Shown here: piece by piece, positions 1-34,666 of the stretch
Position numbering within the stretch: the first letter of the stretch is position 1
Layout: every line of letters begins with the position of its first letter
NCBI GenBank assembly: GCA_050011835.1
Contig: JBEKII010000001.1
Coordinates: 172,262-236,261 of the forward strand
DNA: 64,000 nucleotides
Direction of reading: 5' to 3'
Origin: Minisyncoccia bacterium
GTDB taxonomy: Bacteria; Patescibacteriota; Minisyncoccia; Phycocordibacterales; Phycocordibacteraceae
Translations under genes and position numbers: made by a program
The notes under the pieces: generated by a model
What the model was told of the DNA's origin: nothing
Databases searched by the model: none
The model's input: the letters and a program-made list of their open reading frames with translations, nothing else

Positions 1-819
1 CCGACGGCTTCGGGTAAATCAATGCGTGCGGTAGAGGAGGCATTGACGCATGGAGGTGAAATAATTTCTGTTGACTCACGGCAAGTGTATCGCGGATTGG
101 ATATTGGCACGGAAAAAATAACAAAAGAAGAAATGCGCGGTGTCCCCCATCATCTCATTGATATCCACGACGTGAACGAGACATATTCCGCCGGCGATTT
201 TGTCGCGGATGCAACTCGCCTCATTAAAGAAATTTCTGCGCGCGGGAAACTGCCGATTCTCGTCGGCGGAACACATTTTTATTTTGACGCGCTTCTGAAT
301 GGTCTTCCGGCGGATACTGATGCGAACCCTGCGCTTCGCGCGGAACTTGAAAAACTTCAAACCGAGGAACTTGCGGCGCGGGTCGCGCAGCGCGACCCGC
401 GCCGCGCCGCGAATATTGACCCGAAAAATCGCCGCCGCCTCATTCGCGCACTGGAAATCATTGAAGCACAAGGGAAAGTTCCAATACGAATCTCATCCAC
501 ACCGGCATATGAAATTAAGTGGATTATTATTGATCCGCCGCGCGAAGAATTGCGCGAGCAAATTGATGCGCGACTCATAAACGCTTTTAAACGCGGACTC
601 ATTGAAGAAGTGCGCCGCGTGCGCGAAAAAGTTGGCGACACTCGTTTGAGTGAACTCGGCCTTGAATACAAAATCGTGGGCGAATTTTTACGAGGCGAAC
701 GCGACGAGGCATCACTTTTCCCCTCTCTTTCGGCAAAACTCTGGCAGTACGCGCGGCGTCAGAAAGCGTGGCTTCGCAAACTTATTCCGGCAACACCGTC
801 GCACCAGGACAGAAACTGA
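1..819 (+). CDS. miaA: tRNA dimethylallyltransferase MiaA, 5'-partial (frame open from base 1)
   Basis: Bases 1-21 translate in frame to PTASGKS (P-loop remnant); downstream DSRQVYRGLDIGTEK, HHLID and GGTHFYF motifs typical of MiaA; the M at 22 is internal. Confidence 0.85.
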   Translation, partial: PTASGKSMRAVEEALTHGGEIISVDSRQVYRGLDIGTEKITKEEMRGVPHHLIDIHDVNETYSAGDFVADATRLIKEISARGKLPILVGGTHFYFDALLNGLPADTDANPALRAELEKLQTEELAARVAQRDPRRAANIDPKNRRRLIRALEIIEAQGKVPIRISSTPAYEIKWIIIDPPREELREQIDARLINAFKRGLIEEVRRVREKVGDTRLSELGLEYKIVGEFLRGERDEASLFPSLSAKLWQYARRQKAWLRKLIPATPSHQDRN

Positions 820-6133: not shown

Positions 6134-7384
6134 CTACCATTGACCGTTATTGTCAATAAATGTGACTGCGCGCGTAAGGGCTCTCACAAACCGGGCGAAT
6201 TCGCGCGAGCGGGCGCGCGGACCCCAAGAAATACGCAGCGTTGAGCGAGCGCGTTCCCGGTCGTCCGTCAAAGCGAAGACCGCTCGAGATCCTTCTTCGG
6301 AATCCCTAAGCGATTCGTCAGACGAGTCGCCGGGCGACCGCTCCATGCGGAGTGGTTTGACCGTCTCGCACGCGCTCCGCGTGGAAACGGCGAATCCCGC
6401 TTCATCCAGAAGTGCGACAAGATAGTCGGTGTCGCGATCAGGGAATGAAAGGTTAAGAATGTGCGGCGCCTGTCTATCGGCTGACGGACTCCCATTTATA
6501 TATACGTTTGGAATGGCGTCGGTGATGACCTTGATAAGTTGAGCCCGTCTCTTCTCTGCAGAAGACCGGAATTGTTCACGACCGCAGACAGCGGCGCAAA
6601 GGTCTGCCGCAAAGATTTTAGCAAGCTCACCTGCTTCGCTTCCTGAACGCAACCCACGCTCCTGACCGCCGCCCACATAAAGCGGAGCGATCGGAATCGT
6701 GCGATGTGCGATCAACACACCGATACCGCGAGTTGTACCGATTTTTGAAGCATCAAGGGTGAGCATGTCCGCATCAAAATGCGCGCGCGAAATTTTCTCA
6801 GTAAACGGCGCTTGGCTTGCGTCGATATGAAGTAAAGCCCGTGAAAGAGAATCGGGAAAAGCATGTCGTATCGGCCTAGCGGCCCGAGTGCTTGCTTTTT
6901 CTGATTTTCCGAGCTGGGCTCTTTTCAAAACCTCCGCTACTTCCCGCGTATTCCACACCACGCCCGTTTCGCCGCAGACCGCGTCCATCGCAACAAGAAC
7001 GGTATCGTCTCGCAGCATTTTCGCAAGTACTTCCGCATCAACGCGGTAATTCTTAATCGGCAGAGCTTCAGTCGTCACTCCTTCCGCGGTGAGCAATTTT
7101 ATATTTTCAACAATTGAAGCGTGCGCACTTGGCAAGTACAAAACATGCATACCACTTCTCCCGTTTGCACGAAGCGCCCGAATATGGCCAAGGAGAGCGA
7201 GCGCGTTGCTTTCTGTCGCTCCGCTTGTAAAAATAATATCGTCCGGCTGCACTTCAATGAGACGCGCGATAGTCGTGCGCGCATTTTCTAGCGTTTGCTT
7301 TGCGTAGCGACCTTCCTGGTGCGGTGACGACGGATTGCCGCTTATGCCGGCCGCGCAGTCGAAATACACTCGTTTTTTAAACAT
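6134..7384 (-). CDS. cysteine desulfurase (class V aminotransferase, IscS/NifS family)
   Basis: YFDCAAG..SPHQEGR, TSGATESN and ...LDASKIG (PLP-Lys) motifs; low-complexity insertions near C-terminus. Confidence 0.8.
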   Translation of the reverse strand: MFKKRVYFDCAAGISGNPSSPHQEGRYAKQTLENARTTIARLIEVQPDDIIFTSGATESNALALLGHIRALRANGRSGMHVLYLPSAHASIVENIKLLTAEGVTTEALPIKNYRVDAEVLAKMLRDDTVLVAMDAVCGETGVVWNTREVAEVLKRAQLGKSEKASTRAARPIRHAFPDSLSRALLHIDASQAPFTEKISRAHFDADMLTLDASKIGTTRGIGVLIAHRTIPIAPLYVGGGQERGLRSGSEAGELAKIFAADLCAAVCGREQFRSSAEKRRAQLIKVITDAIPNVYINGSPSADRQAPHILNLSFPDRDTDYLVALLDEAGFAVSTRSACETVKPLRMERSPGDSSDESLRDSEEGSRAVFALTDDRERARSTLRISWGPRARSREFARFVRALTRAVTFIDNNGQW

Positions 7385-7387
7385 GCG

Positions 7388-8113
7388 CTACGGTTGTTCA
7401 ATAAGCTGATAATCGCGAGGGAAAAGATATTGGGCGATCTTAAATATGCCATACGTCATAAAAGGAGCCGCGAGCACGTCTATGGAGTAATGCACGTGCG
7501 CGAAGAGCACCGCAATGCCAAAAATGAGAGTGAGCGAAAGAAGAATGTTGCGCAAAAATCGCTCTCTCCAAAAAATGAGCGACATGAGAAACGGTAGCCC
7601 GGTGTGTCCCGAGAAAAAGAATCCGGTCTGCAAATTAAAATAGGAGTAGATGTTATCAAAAAATCCAGGGCCCGGGTCTATATGGCCCGGATAAATACCG
7701 ATGTGAGTGAGAGACATAAACAACGCGCGAACTATGATGAGAATTGCTAAAGCCTTGAGAGAAAAGAGAATGTAACGCGGCCTGAAGAAAACGATAAACA
7801 ACGTGGCGACGACAAGAGTAATCATCGCGCCTTCAACAATAATAAAATTCAAATTGACCACGGGAAGATTGTCTAAGAGAAGGTCACCGACGTAGGTGGA
7901 CGTGGGACGCATTGAATACGCAAGCGCATAAACCATGGCGAAGTGTTCGCACACAAACGAGATACAGAGCAATATCAGCGCCTTTATAAATGAACGCAAC
8001 CACGTGGGTTTAATGAGGTCTCCACGAGTGAACGGGATCGGGTCGTGCGGTTCTTCCAGCACAAAAGATGAGATAAAAACGCGAGTAAAAAAATGTGAGT
8101 CGCGCGGTTCCAT
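7388..8113 (-). CDS. PAP2-superfamily integral membrane phosphatase / phospholipid phosphotransferase-like
   Basis: Multi-TM; PAP2 motifs FFRPRY (KX6RP), FSGHTG (PSGH), HVHYSIDV (SRX5HX3D). Confidence 0.6.
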   Translation of the reverse strand: MEPRDSHFFTRVFISSFVLEEPHDPIPFTRGDLIKPTWLRSFIKALILLCISFVCEHFAMVYALAYSMRPTSTYVGDLLLDNLPVVNLNFIIVEGAMITLVVATLFIVFFRPRYILFSLKALAILIIVRALFMSLTHIGIYPGHIDPGPGFFDNIYSYFNLQTGFFFSGHTGLPFLMSLIFWRERFLRNILLSLTLIFGIAVLFAHVHYSIDVLAAPFMTYGIFKIAQYLFPRDYQLIEQP

Positions 8114-27720: not shown

Positions 27721-28321
27721 TTTTATTGTTTTATAAAAATCGTCTCCATTATTAATTAAGTTTTACTAACACAGCAGACAATAAAGAAATGAGCTGTCAA
27801 ACTCTCCCGTAAGTCTACTCCCCTGCTATAAGCCGTCAATCCACTTGACAACTATCAATATTTTCGTTTCTGTTATCAAATTATCTCTCAAATGTCCCCC
27901 ATCCGTGGAGCCCAAAATATTTCAGCCGACAGCGAGTAATTTCGATGGTGAGCGATGGCCGTTAATGATGCGTACCTTCCCGGAAGAAACATGAAAATGG
28001 TCAGCAATAATCGCGACGATACGACGATTCGCCAGATTTTGAGCTGGCTTTTCCTTAACAGAGATTTCAAAGTGATCGGGAGAAATCATTTTTAACGATT
28101 CCTTCTTTGCGGCCGCCCGAACCAGGACTTTTACATACATGCAGGTACGGTACCATGGCGGGTTCAAATATCCTCCATCCGGCGGAGCTAAAGTTCTGAA
28201 CGTGTCCTGAAAAAAATGTCCTGCGATGGCAAACGGCACGTGTACGTGTATATAGTAGAATACTTCCGGAATATAAATCAGCTCTTCCGTCGTTAAACCA
28301 TACTCTGAAAGGGGGAATGAG

Positions 28322-28546
28322 ATGAAAATACTGACTGCATTGTTCATTGCGATTGCGATTTTCACTCTGCCGCTCAACGAATGGGAAAAGGCCTCCGAAC
28401 AGGAGAGAACCGATGTCTGTGAGAGAATGTTTAGAAGTTTCAAAGCGGACAATCCCTCATGCCTGAGAGTGAGGATCGGCACCCTCATCATCGGAAACGA
28501 GCTGAAGGTGCTCATCGAATGCGTGGAAAGCGGAACAGGAATATGA
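28322..28546 (+). CDS. hypothetical small secreted protein
   Basis: GGGGGA RBS 8 nt before ATG; N-terminal signal-like helix; 74 aa. Confidence 0.35.
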   Translation: MKILTALFIAIAIFTLPLNEWEKASEQERTDVCERMFRSFKADNPSCLRVRIGTLIIGNELKVLIECVESGTGI

Positions 28547-28735
28547 CGATCATACCCGTACCTCCGAACCCCAGTCCGTGGACGTAGTGGTGGATACGGT
28601 AAAGAGAAAGGTGAGAGGGTTCGGAGGAAGCACCAACCGCTCATCTTTTTCACCGCCCGGAGAGCGTGGACCCGTAATGGTTATGCATGCCGATGGGGTA
28701 TGTTGCAAATAGCCAAGACACGAAAAACTTCTACG

Positions 28736-28804
28736 CCGCATGATTCGCTCTGCGGTTTTTCTTTTTATACAAAACACATTCGAATATAGTCCAGTCAGCG
28801 GAAG
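28736..28804 (+). repeat. junction element copy 1
   Basis: CCGCA..TGCGG hairpin + TTTTTCTTTTTAT + TTCGAATATAGTCCAGTCAGCGGAAG. Confidence 0.55.
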
Positions 28805-28903
28805 TTTTTATTGTTATTGACCGATGACTGCGAGAAAGCTAACATCAGCAGCGGAACTTTGCTGTTCCTTATTAAACTCAAGAGGGGAAGGGGGGTGAGG
28901 AAG

Positions 28904-29593
28904 ATGAACAAAATCAGCCGCAGAGCTATTCTGGAAATCGCGAAGACGCTTGTTGGCAGTATCATCAACAAGGTTCCTATTCAACAACAAGTTGTCCAAA
29001 AACTTTCCAACATTCTGGGAGTCCAGAGATGTGTGATCTTCAGAGTCGGCAATCATCGCGAAGGTGATGACTACGACGTTGAAATCACGGCTGGCGTGCC
29101 CATTGAAGAACACGGCATCGGCCTCAAGGAGTCCGTCACAAAACATCCAGACATCGAAGCAGCCGTTCGTCTCGGTAAAGTGATGGTTATTGCCGATCCC
29201 AAAACATCATCGATGACTGTTCATCTCAGAGGGATCATCGAAAAGAAAAACATCACACAGATCCTGTATCTGCCGCTTATTTCTTCCGGAGTAAAAGTCA
29301 AGACCATCGGTGTAATAGTGCTTGACGATGCGGGGGAGAAAGATAATTTTGAGCCGGAAGAGATAGAATTTTGCGGTGAGGTCGGCGAGCTTATATCGCT
29401 TACTATGGATCGCGAGGAAATCCTGATTCAACAGATGAGAGATATCATCATAAACCGTGTTGCCGCGTTAGGCGGATTTACGAGCCGATTGGACAAATCC
29501 ACAGAAGAATTCTCTAAGGGCGTCAAGAACATCCTGGAAGAAATTCGCATGCTTGAGGAGAGCTGTCCGAAAGGAGGCAGAATTAATTTTTAA
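28904..29593 (+). CDS. GAF-like domain protein with C-terminal helical tail
   Basis: Start at internal Met after GAGGAAG; GAF-like core (..QRCVIFRVGN...LYLPLISSGVKVKTIGVIVLDD..). Confidence 0.45.
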   Translation: MNKISRRAILEIAKTLVGSIINKVPIQQQVVQKLSNILGVQRCVIFRVGNHREGDDYDVEITAGVPIEEHGIGLKESVTKHPDIEAAVRLGKVMVIADPKTSSMTVHLRGIIEKKNITQILYLPLISSGVKVKTIGVIVLDDAGEKDNFEPEEIEFCGEVGELISLTMDREEILIQQMRDIIINRVAALGGFTSRLDKSTEEFSKGVKNILEEIRMLEESCPKGGRINF

Positions 29594-29617
29594 CATGCTC
29601 TAAAAAGGAGAAGGGCG

Positions 29618-29821
29618 ATGAAAAATTTAATTGTGCTGATATTAATGATAGGTTTGGCAGGTCTGAGTTTGGTTGCTTGTGCAGCTTGTGCAAATATCTC
29701 CTTAAAGATTTATCATCCAATCGCTGGATCATTGCCACCAAATGTCGGCTACAATGACTGCAGCGCATCTGAGATGTGGAAGTGTTACTATCCACCTGGA
29801 ATCGTGATCGCAGTATGGTGA
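29618..29821 (+). CDS. small Cys-rich putative lipoprotein
   Basis: AGGAGA RBS; signal peptide with lipobox-like SLVAC; 5 Cys in 45-aa mature part. Confidence 0.45.
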   Translation: MKNLIVLILMIGLAGLSLVACAACANISLKIYHPIAGSLPPNVGYNDCSASEMWKCYYPPGIVIAVW

Positions 29822-30063
29822 GGCTTTGGGCACCTGATCGAACAAGAAACACGATTGAGTGCCCTTTTTATTTAGGTCATAAATCGCTGATGCGTTTGAA
29901 GCCCGAGATACCTTTATTTCGTCTCAAAACTTAGGTTCTAACGTCGACCGATATACAGAGCAAAAAATTGACAGTATTTTTATATCGTGATATACAAGAA
30001 GACAGACCGCGACTCAGGCTCATTTGTACAAATTCATTCCAAACTGATTCAAGGAGGTATGCC

Positions 30064-30375
30064 ATGCTTAAAGCAATTGCAACCACGCCCTGGTACTTCC
30101 GCTTCTTACCAAACTTCTTCTGGATGAAACCGTTCGTCGAGAAAGTCCGGATCGTGGACATGGCGAAGCGCGATCTCCAGCCGATTTCATCAGGTGATCG
30201 GCAGCGATATACCAGTTCGTACGCATATGCTGTCTGGGTCAAGACAAGTCACGGCAACCTTTACCTGGAGGTATCGAAAGAGGTCTATCACCGCTTAAGG
30301 CGGAACGACCAGTTAATTGTTCGCTACCAATGTGGTCGCCGAACGGAGAGACTCAGAGGTCATATCGCGCGTTAA
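30064..30375 (+). CDS. hypothetical protein (103 aa)
   Basis: Strong AAGGAGG RBS 6 nt upstream of ATG 30064. Confidence 0.4.
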   Translation: MLKAIATTPWYFRFLPNFFWMKPFVEKVRIVDMAKRDLQPISSGDRQRYTSSYAYAVWVKTSHGNLYLEVSKEVYHRLRRNDQLIVRYQCGRRTERLRGHIAR

Positions 30376-30422
30376 CCGCTACCTCGATGAGACAGGAAGC
30401 TAAACTTCTATCTCATGACAGA

Positions 30423-30493
30423 GGGGCGGTTTTCTGTTTCTACACATTCTACACAAAACATATTTGAACATCTTCCAGCCAGCGGAGCTGACA
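30423..30493 (+). repeat. junction element copy A
   Basis: GGGGCGGTTTTCTGTTTC...TTTGAACATCTTCCAGCCAGCGGAGCTGACA. Confidence 0.55.
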
Positions 30494-30521
30494 GTTCATA
30501 AAATCTATGGTATATTAGGAA

Positions 30522-30752
30522 ATGATGAGAACACGGGATTTTGATAAAGAGCGCAGTGAGCAGTCACATTCACTCGCTGACTTTTTGAATGTCTATAACG
30601 AGAACCTTTCTCCCGCCTTTCCTCGGGCGTCAATTGCCTTGCTTAAAGAATTTAAGAACACTCATCAGAATCTCTTTAAGTCGAATGGGGTGTGGTCGTT
30701 GGACCTTCACCGGAAAAAGGTCATGGATTGGCTACATCCTCGCTCAACATAG
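30522..30752 (+). CDS. hypothetical protein (76 aa)
   Basis: ORF only; preferred over overlapping 30589-30936 ORF whose product is low-complexity. Confidence 0.25.
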   Translation: MMRTRDFDKERSEQSHSLADFLNVYNENLSPAFPRASIALLKEFKNTHQNLFKSNGVWSLDLHRKKVMDWLHPRST

Positions 30753-30799
30753 TTCGAACTGTCCCGACCGCGCTAGCGGAGACCAACTTTCTGGTCTGA

Positions 30800-30910
30800 C
30801 CGCCACACTTGAGGAATCCGCCTACCTGGGCCATATTTCCTCAGTGGGCGGTTTTCTCTTTTCATACCGAATAGGTTTGAACATCCTCTATCCAGCGGCA
30901 ACTCTAACGC
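30800..30910 (+). repeat. junction element copy B
   Basis: CCGCCACACTTGAGG...CCTCAGTGGGCGG hairpin + TTTTCTCTTTTC + GGTTTGAACATCCTCTATCCAGCGGCAACTCTAAC; right end overlaps RelE 3' end. Confidence 0.55.
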
Positions 30911-31182
30911 TTCCCCATTTCCTTGTAGACCACTGAACGATGAAGAATGGCGAGTATGAGAACCTTGGTTCCTGCGATACGAAAAACAACGCGATAGTCG
31001 CCAATACGAAGCTTGCGGTATCCTTTTAGGGAGCGCCGCAGGGGTTTGCCATAAAGATCGGGGTAGGAAGAGAGTTTCTCTTCGATAGCGGCTTGTATTT
31101 TAACTCTCCAAGCAGATGTGAGTTGCGGGATGTCTTCCTCGACGACTTTCTGCTGATAGATAACCTCAAAATCTAGCGCCAT
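30904..31182 (-). CDS. type II toxin, RelE/ParE family
   Basis: LRIGDYRVVFRIAGTKVLILAILHR C-terminal signature; 92 aa. Confidence 0.75.
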   Translation of the reverse strand: MALDFEVIYQQKVVEEDIPQLTSAWRVKIQAAIEEKLSSYPDLYGKPLRRSLKGYRKLRIGDYRVVFRIAGTKVLILAILHRSVVYKEMGKR

Positions 31183-31394
31183 GCCAGGGAGTGAGGAAGG
31201 AATGAAGTTTTGCCCACATCACGCTTTCTGGCAATTTCATCAAGAACCTGATCTTCTTCAATCTCAAGAGCTATCCGAAGAAGGTGTTCGGCCTTCGTTG
31301 CCTGAGGAACTTGGTCGCGTTTAGCGAGTTTGCCGAGCAAATCATCTAGATCTTTGGAAACACTAATATTAATGCGTTTTTTGGTGGTGGCCAT
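31173..31394 (-). CDS. antitoxin, ribbon-helix-helix (CopG-like) family
   Basis: MATTKKRINISVSKDLDDLL RHH N-terminus; stop overlaps RelE start by 10 nt; ORF could also open at TTG 31412. Confidence 0.6.
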   Translation of the reverse strand: MATTKKRINISVSKDLDDLLGKLAKRDQVPQATKAEHLLRIALEIEEDQVLDEIARKRDVGKTSFLPHSLAWR

Positions 31395-31878
31395 ATGAAT
31401 AGAGTGTATCAAAAGTGTATCTATGTCGTCAATAGTATTAGGGTGAACAAGTGCACATCGTGAACATTACACAATCATCAAGAATGCTAACTTCCCTACC
31501 CTACATAGGTTCGAGCATCCTCTAGCCAGCGGAACTGACATTTTTATAGTTTGTGATAAAATTAAAGCTAGACAGAACATTCCAAAAAGAAAGGGAGGGG
31601 TCCATTATGAGTCATGAGATCAGGATTGTGTCGGCGTACAATGGACGACTGCACGAATCAACCATTCACAGGGCCGAGGTGCTCATTGGCATCGAGGTAG
31701 ACAGTAAGGTAGTTTTATTTCAACAATGAGGAGGCGAGAAGGCACGGAGTGACCTATGAATATGAAAAAGGTCGAGAGACGATAATTCGGGCGAAGTTCT
31801 AACATTAATTAACTCCTCGAATTCTGTGTCTACGTGGCAGAGATTACTGCGACGAACTCATTAAAGGAGGTGGTCCCT

Positions 31879-32223
31879 GTGGGCAGTGGCAATGTTGTTG
31901 CCAAAAAGTATTCCTCTAACACATTGGTGGTCCATTGGACTCTCGGTTCTTCCCTCCGTTTTGCTTGGGATGAGGGCGAAAACAAGTGGCGCTGTGTTTC
32001 GAGTTATAAGCTTATATCCTGCAACGCAGACCCCGCATTGAAGGTACTTGAATTCACAGCAGCCCCAATTCCTGACCGCTGTTACACTCCTGAGGAAGCT
32101 AAATCTCTAGCCCAAAGGCCGAGCCGATGGAAAAAGAGTATCAACGACCCATCAATTGACATTGATGACCTGGTACTGGAAGTTATGAGGTCACGAGGTG
32201 TCAAAGTAGAATGTCTCTACTGA
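31879..32223 (+). CDS. hypothetical protein (114 aa, GTG start)
   Basis: AAGGAGG RBS 7 nt before GTG 31879; followed by strong terminator. Confidence 0.4.
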   Translation: MGSGNVVAKKYSSNTLVVHWTLGSSLRFAWDEGENKWRCVSSYKLISCNADPALKVLEFTAAPIPDRCYTPEEAKSLAQRPSRWKKSINDPSIDIDDLVLEVMRSRGVKVECLY

Positions 32224-32226
32224 CTA

Positions 32227-32313
32227 CCGCCCACGAAAGCCGGATGGCTCTCGTGGGCGGTTTCTGTTTTTTATACTAAAGTTCAAACATCCTCTATCCA
32301 GCTCAACTGACCC
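32227..32313 (+). repeat. junction element copy C (includes rho-independent terminator 32227-32274)
   Basis: CCGCCCACGA-loop-TCGTGGGCGG + TTTCTGTTTTTTAT, then GTTCAAACATCCTCTATCCAGCTCAACTGACCC. Confidence 0.6.
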
Positions 32314-32578
32314 AATTCCCTCTCAACCTGTGCCCAATTGAGAGTTCTGAACTCATCCAGCCAGCGGAGCTACAACGTCACCGTTGAGGATTATTACTTA
32401 CACCCCACATGTTATAGCTTTTTGACTCGGTATTATTCCGGTCGTCTCATCTATACCAAAAATAAAAGCGGAGTATTCCGGATATAATTTATATAGGATT
32501 AACCCCGCCCTGACTATGAAGAAAAAACACTGGTTCAAGAAAAAATTCCTTGAGAAAAGTTTTAAACGCGGAGCTGAT

Positions 32579-33283
32579 ATGAAATTCGGAGACGTACCGA
32601 ATACGGGAGCTCCTTACACCCGCATTATCTCCGGGATTCGACCCTCGTTCTCGAGGAACAGAGATACCGTTATTGTTACCATCTACAGGGCACTACAGAA
32701 GGATCCAAAACAAGACCTTTACTACGTGATTGCTATCGACCGACGACGGTGCACGTATGTAGAGGAAGTGGAATTCAGTGCAGACCATATACAACGCATG
32801 CATTCTGACGAAATCAGCATGGATTTGGAAAGCGAATATAATGGGTTCTCTCGCCTACTGAGTGATGCGATACCCACCGAATTTTCGAGACCCTCATTTA
32901 CTTTCCATCGCAAAGACGGCAATCGGTTTTTGACCCCGCTCGGAGTACGGCGCGTATCCGGTTTATTTACTAAGGGACTGATAGTCTTGCCTTCAGATTT
33001 TAACGATTCTCACACCAGAGAGGAGATAAATCTTCTCCGGCAAGAGATGGATGCATATCCGAAAGATCCTATTGGCAGTACTCTATTCGCATTAACACTT
33101 GCCTTGGTGGCTGAAGTTGGCCTTACGCGCCAAAAGATTCTTATTCCTGAGAAATCTAAGCCAACACCGACACCAGGAACACATCCTGTCTTGACTGGAG
33201 GAAGGAATTTTGAAGAGAGCCCCGAAGGTCAGGAGATGCGGAAATTATTGGCCCAGTCAATGGCGTATTACAAAAAACATTGA
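32579..33283 (+). CDS. hypothetical protein (about 235 aa)
   Basis: GGAG 5 nt before ATG 32579 (ORF opens at 32516). Confidence 0.35.
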   Translation: MKFGDVPNTGAPYTRIISGIRPSFSRNRDTVIVTIYRALQKDPKQDLYYVIAIDRRRCTYVEEVEFSADHIQRMHSDEISMDLESEYNGFSRLLSDAIPTEFSRPSFTFHRKDGNRFLTPLGVRRVSGLFTKGLIVLPSDFNDSHTREEINLLRQEMDAYPKDPIGSTLFALTLALVAEVGLTRQKILIPEKSKPTPTPGTHPVLTGGRNFEESPEGQEMRKLLAQSMAYYKKH

Positions 33284-33289
33284 TTGGAT

Positions 33290-33544
33290 TTATAATCCCC
33301 CTTGAGGATTAGGTATTGGCAGTAATTCTGGCCAACTTGTTTCAAACACCCCATTAATGTCCATGGATAATGTAATCTTCAACTCGTTCGGCGGTCGCTT
33401 GTACTCGTCAGCGGGGACGCGTTCGACAGGGAAAACGACACTCAAAGACTGACCGCCAACATGAAGAGGAGCAATTTTCTGTTTGACTTGGCATATCTCA
33501 AACCTATCTACGTTTCTTTTCTTTGCGCTACGGTGTTTGCTCAT
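33290..33544 (-). CDS. hypothetical small protein
   Basis: ORF only. Confidence 0.2.
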   Translation of the reverse strand: MSKHRSAKKRNVDRFEICQVKQKIAPLHVGGQSLSVVFPVERVPADEYKRPPNELKITLSMDINGVFETSWPELLPIPNPQGGL

Positions 33545-33616
33545 GCGTCCATAGTACCATCACGAGAAGAGTTGGAAGATCATAAACCACTTTTATAGAG
33601 GGCGGCTTTCTTACCT

Positions 33617-34666
33617 TTACTTCGATGCGCTTGTCGTCGCATATTCTTGCGCGACTGATGCGTAGGCGGTGCGAGAAATATTCGCGATGATGGAACTCGC
33701 GGTCGGTACATCGGAAGAGCTGGTCATGACGCAGAGAAGATAGGGATGCGCCGGATAATAAATGATGCCGCAGTCGGATAATTCGACGCCGGTGGCGACG
33801 CCGTTTTGGGAGAGCACATGCTCGCCATATTTATTGGCGACGACTGTTCCCTTCGGCACTCCTGCGACGAGGCCGTTATCGAAAGTCGTTTGCGAGAGAA
33901 GTTTCAATGCCTGCTCGGAGGACTCGGGTGAAAGATATGTGGCGTTATAGAGAATACGGAAGAAAAGCCCGTACGTGCGCGCCGAGATCTGATAATTCGC
34001 GGAATCGTCTCCCGGATTCTGGATGCCGAGCGCGACATAGACCTCATTGAGAAAATCCGGATTGATGCGATCCAGCAGCGTGAAGGTCGCGCCGTTGTCG
34101 GAATCAATGATCATGCTGTTTATAAGGTCTTGAATGGAATAGTCATGGTTCGCGATGAGCGCCGACGGCGCCAGAAATGGATCATTCGGCATAACGCTCG
34201 GATCATAGGTGATGTCTTGTGAGAGTAGAGATGGATCTTCTTCCGCTTCCTTGTAGTACGCGATCATGGTCGGCACTTTGAGCAGGCTCGCGGGATAGTA
34301 AGTATCGTTCTGATTGATGCCGATCCACAGCCCCGCGTCAAGGTCGCGGAAATAGATCGCCGCGCGCGCCGCATTGCCTCCGCTCACTGCCGAATTAATT
34401 ATTGTTTGCAGAGAGTTCTTAAGGGACGTGTAGTCTCCAAGCGTAGTCGCCTCGGGCGTGCGATATGCGAGCAGGGGGTGCACGAAGGCGTAGGGGGATC
34501 CTTTTTCTTCAATGGGCGCGAACGATTGTTTGATTGAACTCACTATTGCGTTGGATTCCGCCCTGCCAATAAAATATCCCGCGGCGATCCCGACACACAA
34601 CCCGAACACTAAAAGCGTGACGCCCTTCAGGAGTGGGGAATGCTTGCCTTGCGCAAGGAAACTCAT
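33617..34666 (-). CDS. membrane-anchored class A beta-lactamase-like serine hydrolase
   Basis: N-terminal TM; SLLK (SxxK), IIDSDN (SDN), KYGE (KTG-like) boxes in class-A order. Confidence 0.6.
   Translation of the reverse strand: MSFLAQGKHSPLLKGVTLLVFGLCVGIAAGYFIGRAESNAIVSSIKQSFAPIEEKGSPYAFVHPLLAYRTPEATTLGDYTSLKNSLQTIINSAVSGGNAARAAIYFRDLDAGLWIGINQNDTYYPASLLKVPTMIAYYKEAEEDPSLLSQDITYDPSVMPNDPFLAPSALIANHDYSIQDLINSMIIDSDNGATFTLLDRINPDFLNEVYVALGIQNPGDDSANYQISARTYGLFFRILYNATYLSPESSEQALKLLSQTTFDNGLVAGVPKGTVVANKYGEHVLSQNGVATGVELSDCGIIYYPAHPYLLCVMTSSSDVPTASSIIANISRTAYASVAQEYATTSASK

Follow-up and report, generated by a model that had tools for sequence, protein, structure and literature searches.

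The described systems that most resemble the gene pair examined here are the RelBE toxin-antitoxin (TA) operons of Mycobacterium tuberculosis and Escherichia coli, the ribbon-helix-helix (RHH) repressors CopG, omega and MetJ, and the superintegron of Vibrio cholerae. M. tuberculosis often makes leaderless TA transcripts. The operator sites of RelB dimers are short neighbouring repeats, offset by roughly one turn of the helix, whereas omega and MetJ bind tandem short direct repeats. Some type II TA pairs defend against phages. TA cassettes also stabilise Vibrio superintegrons, a role that is experimentally backed (PMC13108822). Here, we describe a TA pair carried on the minus strand at positions 30904-31394 of a 64,000-nucleotide stretch (hereafter, the window) of contig JBEKII010000001.1 from a Minisyncoccia bacterium (assembly GCA_050011835.1). 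The pair occupies one slot in a series of short gene units joined by a repeated junction sequence, which we refer to as the core.

We consider it highly likely that these two genes form a functional type II TA operon of the RelBE kind, from a subfamily named so far only in bacteria of the Candidate Phyla Radiation (CPR, or Patescibacteria). A first-pass annotation of the window had assigned the pair to a RelE/ParE toxin and an RHH antitoxin, and had placed it in an integron-like array. The toxin assignment at superfamily level is borne out, and the RHH assignment is probable; as described below, the integron framing fared less well.

Toxin and antitoxin genes

The antitoxin gene (31173-31394, minus strand; 73 aa, with the N-terminus MATTKKRINISV) precedes the toxin gene (30904-31182, minus strand; 92 aa), and the antitoxin stop and toxin start share a 10-nt overlap (ATGGCGCTAG, 31173-31182, by open reading frame (ORF) coordinates), as the first-pass annotation had noted. 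The gene calls of six homologous loci (L020-L025) contain the identical 10-nt overlap, and in 41 of the loci examined the toxin is preceded by the antitoxin motif. Judged by this layout, with the antitoxin first and the two genes co-directional, overlapping and kept as a pair, the locus is a type II TA operon. No Shine-Dalgarno sequence was seen before the toxin ATG; given this and the overlap with the antitoxin stop, toxin synthesis is predicted to depend on translational coupling.

The only Pfam model that the toxin passes is PF05016 (39.7 bits against a cut-off of 23, E 7.6e-10), whose name, ParE_toxin, would at face value suggest a gyrase poison of the ParE type and not an mRNA interferase like RelE. 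That model, however, spans the entire RelE/ParE superfamily. A toxin profile built from 40 homologues and compared with solved structures gave eight matches at E ≤ 0.01, all of them RelE toxins; the best was M. tuberculosis RelE1 (9g12, E 2.3e-9), with further matches to M. tuberculosis RelE2 (9.3e-8), Thermus RelE, M. jannaschii RelE3 and E. coli RelE (E 2.8e-4), the last also in its ribosome-bound form. The AlphaFold model of the toxin consists of a strand, two long helices plus a short one, a three-stranded sheet and a C-terminal helix, and Foldseek places RelE structures at ranks 1-8, with the first ParE at rank 9. In favour of a ParE identity, solved ParE structures are present among the weaker sequence and fold matches. 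Residues R49, S51, G54-Y55-R56-K57, R59, Y63-R64, R68, H81, S83, Y86 and R92 are invariant in the alignment of the 40 homologues. The basic residues R56, K57, R64 and H81/R82, together with the C-terminal Y86, align with K52, K54, R61, R81 and Y87, the catalytic set of E. coli RelE, and the residues so aligned are invariant or nearly so in the family. Lastly, the Joint Genome Institute (JGI) label of homologues is 'mRNA interferase RelE/StbE'. From the profile, the fold and the conserved residues, we conclude that the toxin is a RelE-type mRNA interferase, with mRNA cleavage as its predicted activity, and regard a ParE-type gyrase poison as very unlikely.

The best reading of the antitoxin is a CopG-like RHH protein with a C-terminal helical tail, a call that we grade as probable because the protein falls just below the Pfam threshold. 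Across 42 scanned members of its family, RHH_1 is found in 12 at E ≤ 0.01 (best 5.7e-5), RHH_5 in six, RepB-RCR_reg in three, and no further family. An hhalign comparison with CopG, whose sequence bears KKRLTITLSESVLENLEKMA, aligned residues 4-27 at E 1.8e-4 and a probability of 48.6%; the same comparison with E. coli RelB gave no similarity. The monomer model has an extended N-terminus, a helix at residues 14-27 and a long helix at 34-58, the shape expected of an RHH protomer whose C-terminal extension binds a toxin, and its weak fold matches include the RHH proteins KacA, NikR, ParD2 and Arc. The C-terminal tail presumably binds the toxin.

Both proteins had been annotated automatically before: the identical NCBI entries read 'type II toxin-antitoxin system RelE/ParE family toxin [Minisyncoccia bacterium]' and 'toxin-antitoxin system, antitoxin component', and toxin homologues have also been named by JGI. 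Homologues of the toxin number 1142 at E ≤ 1e-5, and those with a named source all come from CPR lineages.

Promoter, candidate operator and mobility

The first-pass annotation had pointed out the direct repeat GTGTATC-aaaa-GTGTATC as a plausible RHH operator at 31403-31420. The repeat is present one nucleotide further on, with plus-strand half-sites at 31404-31410 and 31415-31421; on the minus strand it reads GATACAC-TTTT-GATACAC (31404-31421), a tandem repeat with an 11-bp period. A consensus scan places a predicted sigma-70-type promoter over it (-35 TTGACG at 31427-31432, 18-nt spacer, -10 TACACT at 31403-31408, minus strand), such that the coding-strand order is TTGACG-acata-GATACAC-tttt-GATACACT-ctattcat-ATG and the repeats cover both the -10 box and the spacer. 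Within the 64 kb of the window, the exact 18-mer is seen at this one place, which by itself is of weak statistical significance; the weight comes from conservation.

To assess conservation, we used a set of homologous pairs comprising those at L020-L025 (three close toxin homologues) and at 80 metagenome loci with 46-78% toxin identity, which yielded 37 unique upstream regions. The repeat GATACAC-N4-GATACACT, with at most one mismatch per half-site, is found in 30 of the 37. Of these 30, a TTGACA-like -35 (at most one mismatch) accompanies it in 27, with an 18-nt spacer in 24 of them, and in 26 the ATG follows the -10 by 6-9 nt. Ungapped column identity is ~0.6 inside the element, as compared with a background of ~0.35 upstream of about -40. 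At one locus, L031, the repeat is present in triplicate, in tandem. Since the repeat overlaps the promoter and is phylogenetically conserved, it is very probably an operator, predicted to serve self-repression. It is the probable site of two adjacent RHH dimers, and the 11-bp period would fit their binding on one face of the helix.

Two side observations concern the same region. In antitoxins that start with KKRVNISLS, the upstream half-site is changed to GTTACAC, GCTACAC or GTCACAC (L051-L053, L043, L049, L058 and L064), and the downstream half-site, which is also the -10 box, remains GATACAC; this pairing may hint at protein-DNA co-variation, confounded by phylogeny. Separately, a direct repeat GTGAACA-N11-GTGAACA lies at 31442-31466, between the TA promoter and the next core (31499); it is not kept in homologous loci.

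The antitoxin ATG of the window lies 8 nt past the -10, and no Shine-Dalgarno sequence is visible before it, although adjacent cassette genes do show GGAGG. With so short a distance and the Shine-Dalgarno sequence missing, an mRNA with little or no leader is predicted, and we think that the TA mRNA is probably leaderless. We propose that the sigma-70-type promoter would give a leaderless bicistronic mRNA, from which the first gene would yield the 73-aa antitoxin. Its N-terminal RHH domain would dimerise and bind the two GATACAC repeats, spaced by 11 bp, and because these cover the -10 box and the spacer, binding would repress the operon. The C-terminal helices of the antitoxin would wrap and neutralise the 92-aa toxin, which would be translated by coupling through the overlap and act as a RelE-like, ribosome-dependent mRNA endonuclease. 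If the antitoxin were lost, through proteolysis or loss of the genes, the toxin would arrest translation. The gene pair with its families, the conservation of residues, promoter and repeat, and the position between cores are observed directly; DNA binding, the leaderless start, coupling, mRNA cleavage and any stabilising effect are all predictions of this scheme, drawn from sequence and modelled structure.

The same comparison bears on how the module is distributed. Close homologous pairs (L020, L021-23 and L024-25) lie between differing housekeeping genes, their neighbours including an Ig-like protein and GAPDH, a transglycosylase and MazE-Fic, and MacB and RluA. At the nucleotide level, these loci resemble the window from the -35, ~45 nt ahead of the ATG, as far as the toxin stop codon. 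Thus delimited, the unit from -35 to stop, of ~530 bp, behaves as a self-contained selfish module that appears to move as a block among unrelated chromosomal sites.

Several points weigh against reading the locus as a functional RelBE-type operon. Of the matches to ParE_toxin and RHH_1, only the former exceeds its threshold; the antitoxin scores 19.0 bits against RHH_1 (E 1.4e-3), just below the cut-off of 20.5. The toxin misses the NCBIfam model RelE_StbE (TIGR02385; 23.6 bits against a cut-off of 27.9), and by that model would be a divergent member of the RelE family. The antitoxin has no significant match to a solved structure by sequence profile or by fold search; both AlphaFold models are of moderate confidence, with predicted local distance difference test (pLDDT) scores of 78 for the toxin and 71.5 for the antitoxin; and it is spacing that predicts the leaderless start. 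One might go further and read the pair as an inactive, decaying remnant. Nothing specific favours this: both ORFs are intact and of full length, the promoter and operator are intact, and the identical TA sequence is found in five contigs from different samples (four besides the window's own). All family-invariant residues are kept, though by construction, since the window proteins are the reference rows of the alignments. We give the idea of a remnant almost no credence, and retain that of a functional operon.

Junction cores and the surrounding array

The cores, of ~30 bp with the consensus CAGGTTCGAACATCCTCYAKCCAGCGGAGC, number seven in the window; all lie at 28.1-32.4 kb on the plus strand, and none were found elsewhere in the window by pattern searches or by an nhmmer profile built from 34 cores. 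A generic repeat finder had missed them. They are at 28157, 28763 (weak), 30448, 30861, 31499, 32270 and 32356 (weak). The TA unit has a core at either end, the two being in the same orientation and the highest-scoring of all: AATAGGTTTGAACATCCTCTATCCAGCGGCAACT (30861-30903, plus strand; an exact match to the pattern; 35.6 bits, the best in the window), which abuts the toxin stop codon (30904-30906), and CATAGGTTCGAGCATCCTCTAGCCAGCGGAACT (31499-31535, plus strand; 35.5 bits) on the promoter side, ~75 nt from the TA -35. This agrees with the first-pass description of a pair embedded in the array in inverse orientation. The toxin 3' end had also been described as overlapping the junction element; it abuts the CPR-wide part of the core, and overlaps only a window-specific extension, CTGAC. 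Similarly, the pair is the only minus-strand unit among those bounded by cores, as had been claimed for the array as a whole, but there are other minus-strand ORFs: one of 63 aa (28550-28741), one of 84 aa past the last core (33290-33544), and a DUF167/YggU gene (27922-28347) at the head of the array, adjoining its first core. The 63-aa ORF is probably spurious because it has no Pfam match and spans a hairpin.

Most cores have a G+C-rich hairpin and T-run ~20 nt upstream, and many have a TTGACA-like hexamer within a few bases downstream. The hairpin at 30799-30852 (CCGCC...GGCGGTTTTCT, plus strand; DNA fold -29.5 kcal/mol, z -5.7) is a terminator-like 3' element of the upstream 76-aa cassette and is convergent with the TA operon; it lies between these transcription units and could act as a terminator for both. 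By contrast with most junctions, the sequence before core 31499 has no terminator hairpin, in keeping with an inverted unit, and its folding does not exceed that of shuffled sequence (z -0.78).

The core is not confined to this genome. An exact-pattern scan over one genome per species found it in eight genomes, all CPR metagenome-assembled genomes (by annotation Paceibacterota, Nomurabacteria, Saccharibacteria, Kaiserbacteria or Parcubacteria), and it is kept almost base for base across CPR classes. Allowing mismatches, 8-kb views of these loci (L012-L019) each contain one to eight co-oriented cores, ~0.25-2.4 kb apart. Across the 37 cores of the window and the eight loci, a -35-like hexamer lies within 24 nt downstream in 17 (control 8%), a full promoter-like site is present at eight (control 0.6%), and a hairpin with T-run lies upstream of 24 (control 23%). 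A co-oriented tRNA-Asn(GTT) gene heads the array in four of the eight loci; it is intact in L014 (6426-6498) and L017 (1282-1354), and split in the anticodon loop by a group I intron in L012 (6925-7205, minus strand) and L018 (~7013-7305, minus strand), the latter intron carrying an HNH-like ORF. In L014, a promoter-like TTGACA follows the tRNA-Asn, just as it follows cores. No tRNA-Asn heads the array of the window, in which the sole tRNA gene is a tRNA-Trp (2405-2476). The tRNA-Asn 3' end, CAGGTTCGAnnCCTGCCCGCGGAGC, resembles the core at both of its ends, a likeness which suggests that the core arose from tRNA-Asn and serves as an attachment site.

Some arrays also contain elements of ~135 nt bounded by TCCGCGGAG...CCCGCGGAGC (L017 5507-5643; L012 ~3415-3270 and ~3200, minus strand). 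Their ends are like the tRNA-Asn acceptor stem, their 3' part copies the T-arm and acceptor, and a TTGACA promoter-like site follows; they may be displaced tRNA 3' ends or an uncharacterised RNA. Rfam has no family that matches the core or these elements: on the window it reports only the tRNA-Trp, and on the eight related loci tRNAs, two group I introns and one LOOT RNA (RF03000; L013 2978-3094, plus strand). In L013, a lone core (5638, plus strand) lies 5 kb from a serine recombinase gene (1-703, minus strand; Resolvase domain, E 2.9e-20) and from the LOOT RNA; this could be an integrated element for which the core is the site of attachment.

The first-pass annotation had likened the array to a sedentary chromosomal integron. 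We found no integrase or recombinase Pfam family among the called genes of ~5.3-57 kb and three further window ORFs, a scan that left out some ORFs near the window ends; an attC cluster without an integrase has no need of intI. Complementary R'' (RYYYAAC) and R' (GTTRRRY) pairs 45-150 nt apart number zero in 28001-33700 on both strands, by a crude exact-complement test for which shuffles give just 0.04. The cores read GTTYRAAC, and we rejected an attC reading of them on folding, which gives terminator-like hairpins ~20 nt before the core rather than R''/R' stems. Many cassettes have promoter-like and terminator-like signals of their own, unlike integron cassettes, which are mostly promoterless. 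We also rejected, by eye, a reading of the core as a dif/Xer site, since it has no dyad symmetry and is unlike the dif consensus. Beside the arrays of L012-L019 (64, 42 and 20 ORFs searched against Pfam), no recombinase is among the families listed, which for one of these searches were the best 25 of 49, other than the L013 serine recombinase. Scans of viral contigs for the core pattern gave no matches. By every feature testable here, then, an integron is not supported. In searches of the literature on CPR integrons and cassettes, on the core sequence and on tRNA-Asn islands, we found no description of the array, which is apparently a separate kind. It was probably built by site-specific insertion at a tRNA-Asn-like site.

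Several other features of the array and its contig are recorded here. A decayed eighth junction lies at 29828-29975, with a hairpin and T-run (29828-29868), then AGGTTCTAACGTCGACCGATATACAGAGC (~29934-29962) and TTGACA-N17-TATACA; it divides an apparent three-gene cassette ahead of a 103-aa ORF (30064-30375). The two cores at 32270-32371 are ~63 bp apart, the second (GTTCTGAACTCATCCAGCCAGCGGAGCT) being degenerate, and mark an 'empty' or collapsed cassette slot. For the protein of the 76-aa cassette next to the TA unit (ORF 30522-30752), the Nomurabacteria locus L013 encodes a homologue at 57% identity (7572-7793), followed there by a core-like remnant, ACAAGCATCCTCTTTGAGCTCGCTACGCGGAAC (~7860-7892); the cassette appears to be common to distant CPR lineages. 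A DUF167 gene also occurs in the Saccharibacteria locus L014 (5745-5963, minus strand), upstream of the tRNA-Asn. The 141-aa DUF167 call of JGI in the window crosses the first core and was probably drawn too long: if translation began at an ATG near 28090, the protein would have ~55 aa and would match its L014 homologue. A 277-kb contig, Ga0427919_0000068, of JGI peat metagenome 3300037993 contains the window, and among its core genes are rpoB, rpoC, dnaG, rpoD, hisS, clpB and trmD. The tRNA-Trp adjoins a 319-aa ORF (in the region 1375-2476) with weak matches to type IV secretion pilin and to a lysozyme-like domain. Because the contigs with an identical toxin are 99.96-100% identical to the window, they are uninformative on cassette turnover. 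In a second sample, an otherwise identical assembly is broken on either side of the 129-aa cassette (31834-32223), at positions corresponding to 31753 and 32203 of the window (ends of Ga0427951_005109 and Ga0427951_003295), which could reflect strain heterogeneity or low coverage of that slot.

Given the precedent of chromosomal integrons, for which there is experimental evidence (PMC13108822), the pair might be a dedicated stabiliser of the array: a recruited cassette, kept by killing cells that delete parts of the array. Its position mid-array between the two best-scoring cores, its inversion and its own promoter all fit such a role, and deletions are possible between cores that are co-oriented direct repeats. 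However, neither a relaxed pattern nor the nhmmer profile detected a core in the flanks of any of 80 metagenomic and five other homologous loci. TA Pfam families are absent among the small ORFs of the eight other arrays (8-kb views), and none is among the families listed for their larger ORFs. Features of an integron were not found, and any TA pair would stabilise its surroundings likewise, with no need of selection for that role. A dedicated stabiliser is accordingly possible but doubtful. By the same counts, this TA family is not associated with arrays, and array stabilisation by the pair, as the first-pass annotation suggested by analogy with integrons, is plausible but unsupported because ~85 homologous pairs are array-free and eight other arrays showed no TA genes.

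A broader version of this idea is that the pair is both an inverted cassette of a new, CPR-wide gene-capture platform and an addiction module guarding the array against core-core deletion. On such a platform, small self-signalled units would be inserted serially at the 3' end of tRNA-Asn, joined by the ~30-bp tRNA-like core, and moved by a recombinase acting in trans. This would be convergent in function with integron TA cassettes, through a different mechanism; we hold the combined proposal only tentatively, and think it more probably wrong than right. Alternatively, the pair may be mainly an anti-phage cassette acting by abortive infection, with the array as a variable defence or accessory island. 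The accessory genes of the arrays (kinases, methyltransferases, a GAF protein and an APH-like kinase) lend this some plausibility, but known defence families were not seen in the arrays, for which no dedicated defence-system search was made, and the same module usually lies between housekeeping genes. We regard a mainly anti-phage role as unlikely. The simplest reading is that the pair is a promiscuous selfish module that landed in, or was captured into, one slot of the array. Any recombination between cores that lost the TA slot would then be counter-selected as a by-product.

The pair alone adds little, being a standard RelBE-like module that NCBI and JGI pipelines had already recognised. 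What the comparison adds is a delimited promoter/operator, TTGACA, N5, GATACAC-N4-GATACACT, N6-9, ATG, for a large family in which every named member belongs to a CPR lineage; it is a testable regulatory element, and its start is probably leaderless, in organisms for which genetics scarcely exists. The analysis also provides evidence for block movement of a promoter-to-stop unit among unrelated chromosomal sites. A TA pair is ordinary for ultra-small CPR bacteria; its host array is less so. Indeed, the larger point is the setting: a near-identical core across CPR classes, arrays in at least eight genomes, and the tie to tRNA-Asn. If the array proves to be a gene-capture system, the pair would be the first candidate stabiliser seen in such an array.

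Comparison with known systems

The closest solved toxins are those of M. tuberculosis RelBE1 (Rv1247c/Rv1246c, 9g12) and RelBE2/RelFG (Rv2865/Rv2866, 3g5o), at ~35% identity over 85 columns; they have in common with the toxin described here the motif GKPLRR..L.G....R.G.YR...RI.....V.I....HR...Y, and likewise come from two-gene operons with the antitoxin first. The differences lie in the antitoxin, which here looks CopG-type and has no detectable similarity to solved antitoxins, in the operator, and in the CPR host. With E. coli RelBE, the pair has in common the toxin fold, the residues aligned to K52, K54, R61, R81 and Y87, and, if our prediction is correct, an RHH antitoxin that represses its own promoter. 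Unlike E. coli RelBE, the toxin similarity is weak at the level of profiles, hhalign gives no likeness to RelB, the candidate operator is a direct repeat over the -10, and the mRNA is probably leaderless.

The antitoxin motif KKRINISVS..L...L..LA resembles the KKRLTITLSESVLENLEKMA segment of CopG. In contrast to CopG, omega and MetJ, the RHH domain is here fused to a tail that presumably binds toxin, and would control a toxin gene. Lastly, as in the V. cholerae superintegron (PMC13108822), a TA pair with its own promoter forms one unit between repeated junction sites. Unlike that superintegron, no IntI or attC R''/R' boxes were found here, the neighbouring cassettes have promoter-like and terminator-like signals of their own, the junction core is like a tRNA-Asn 3' end, and the TA family otherwise lies outside arrays.

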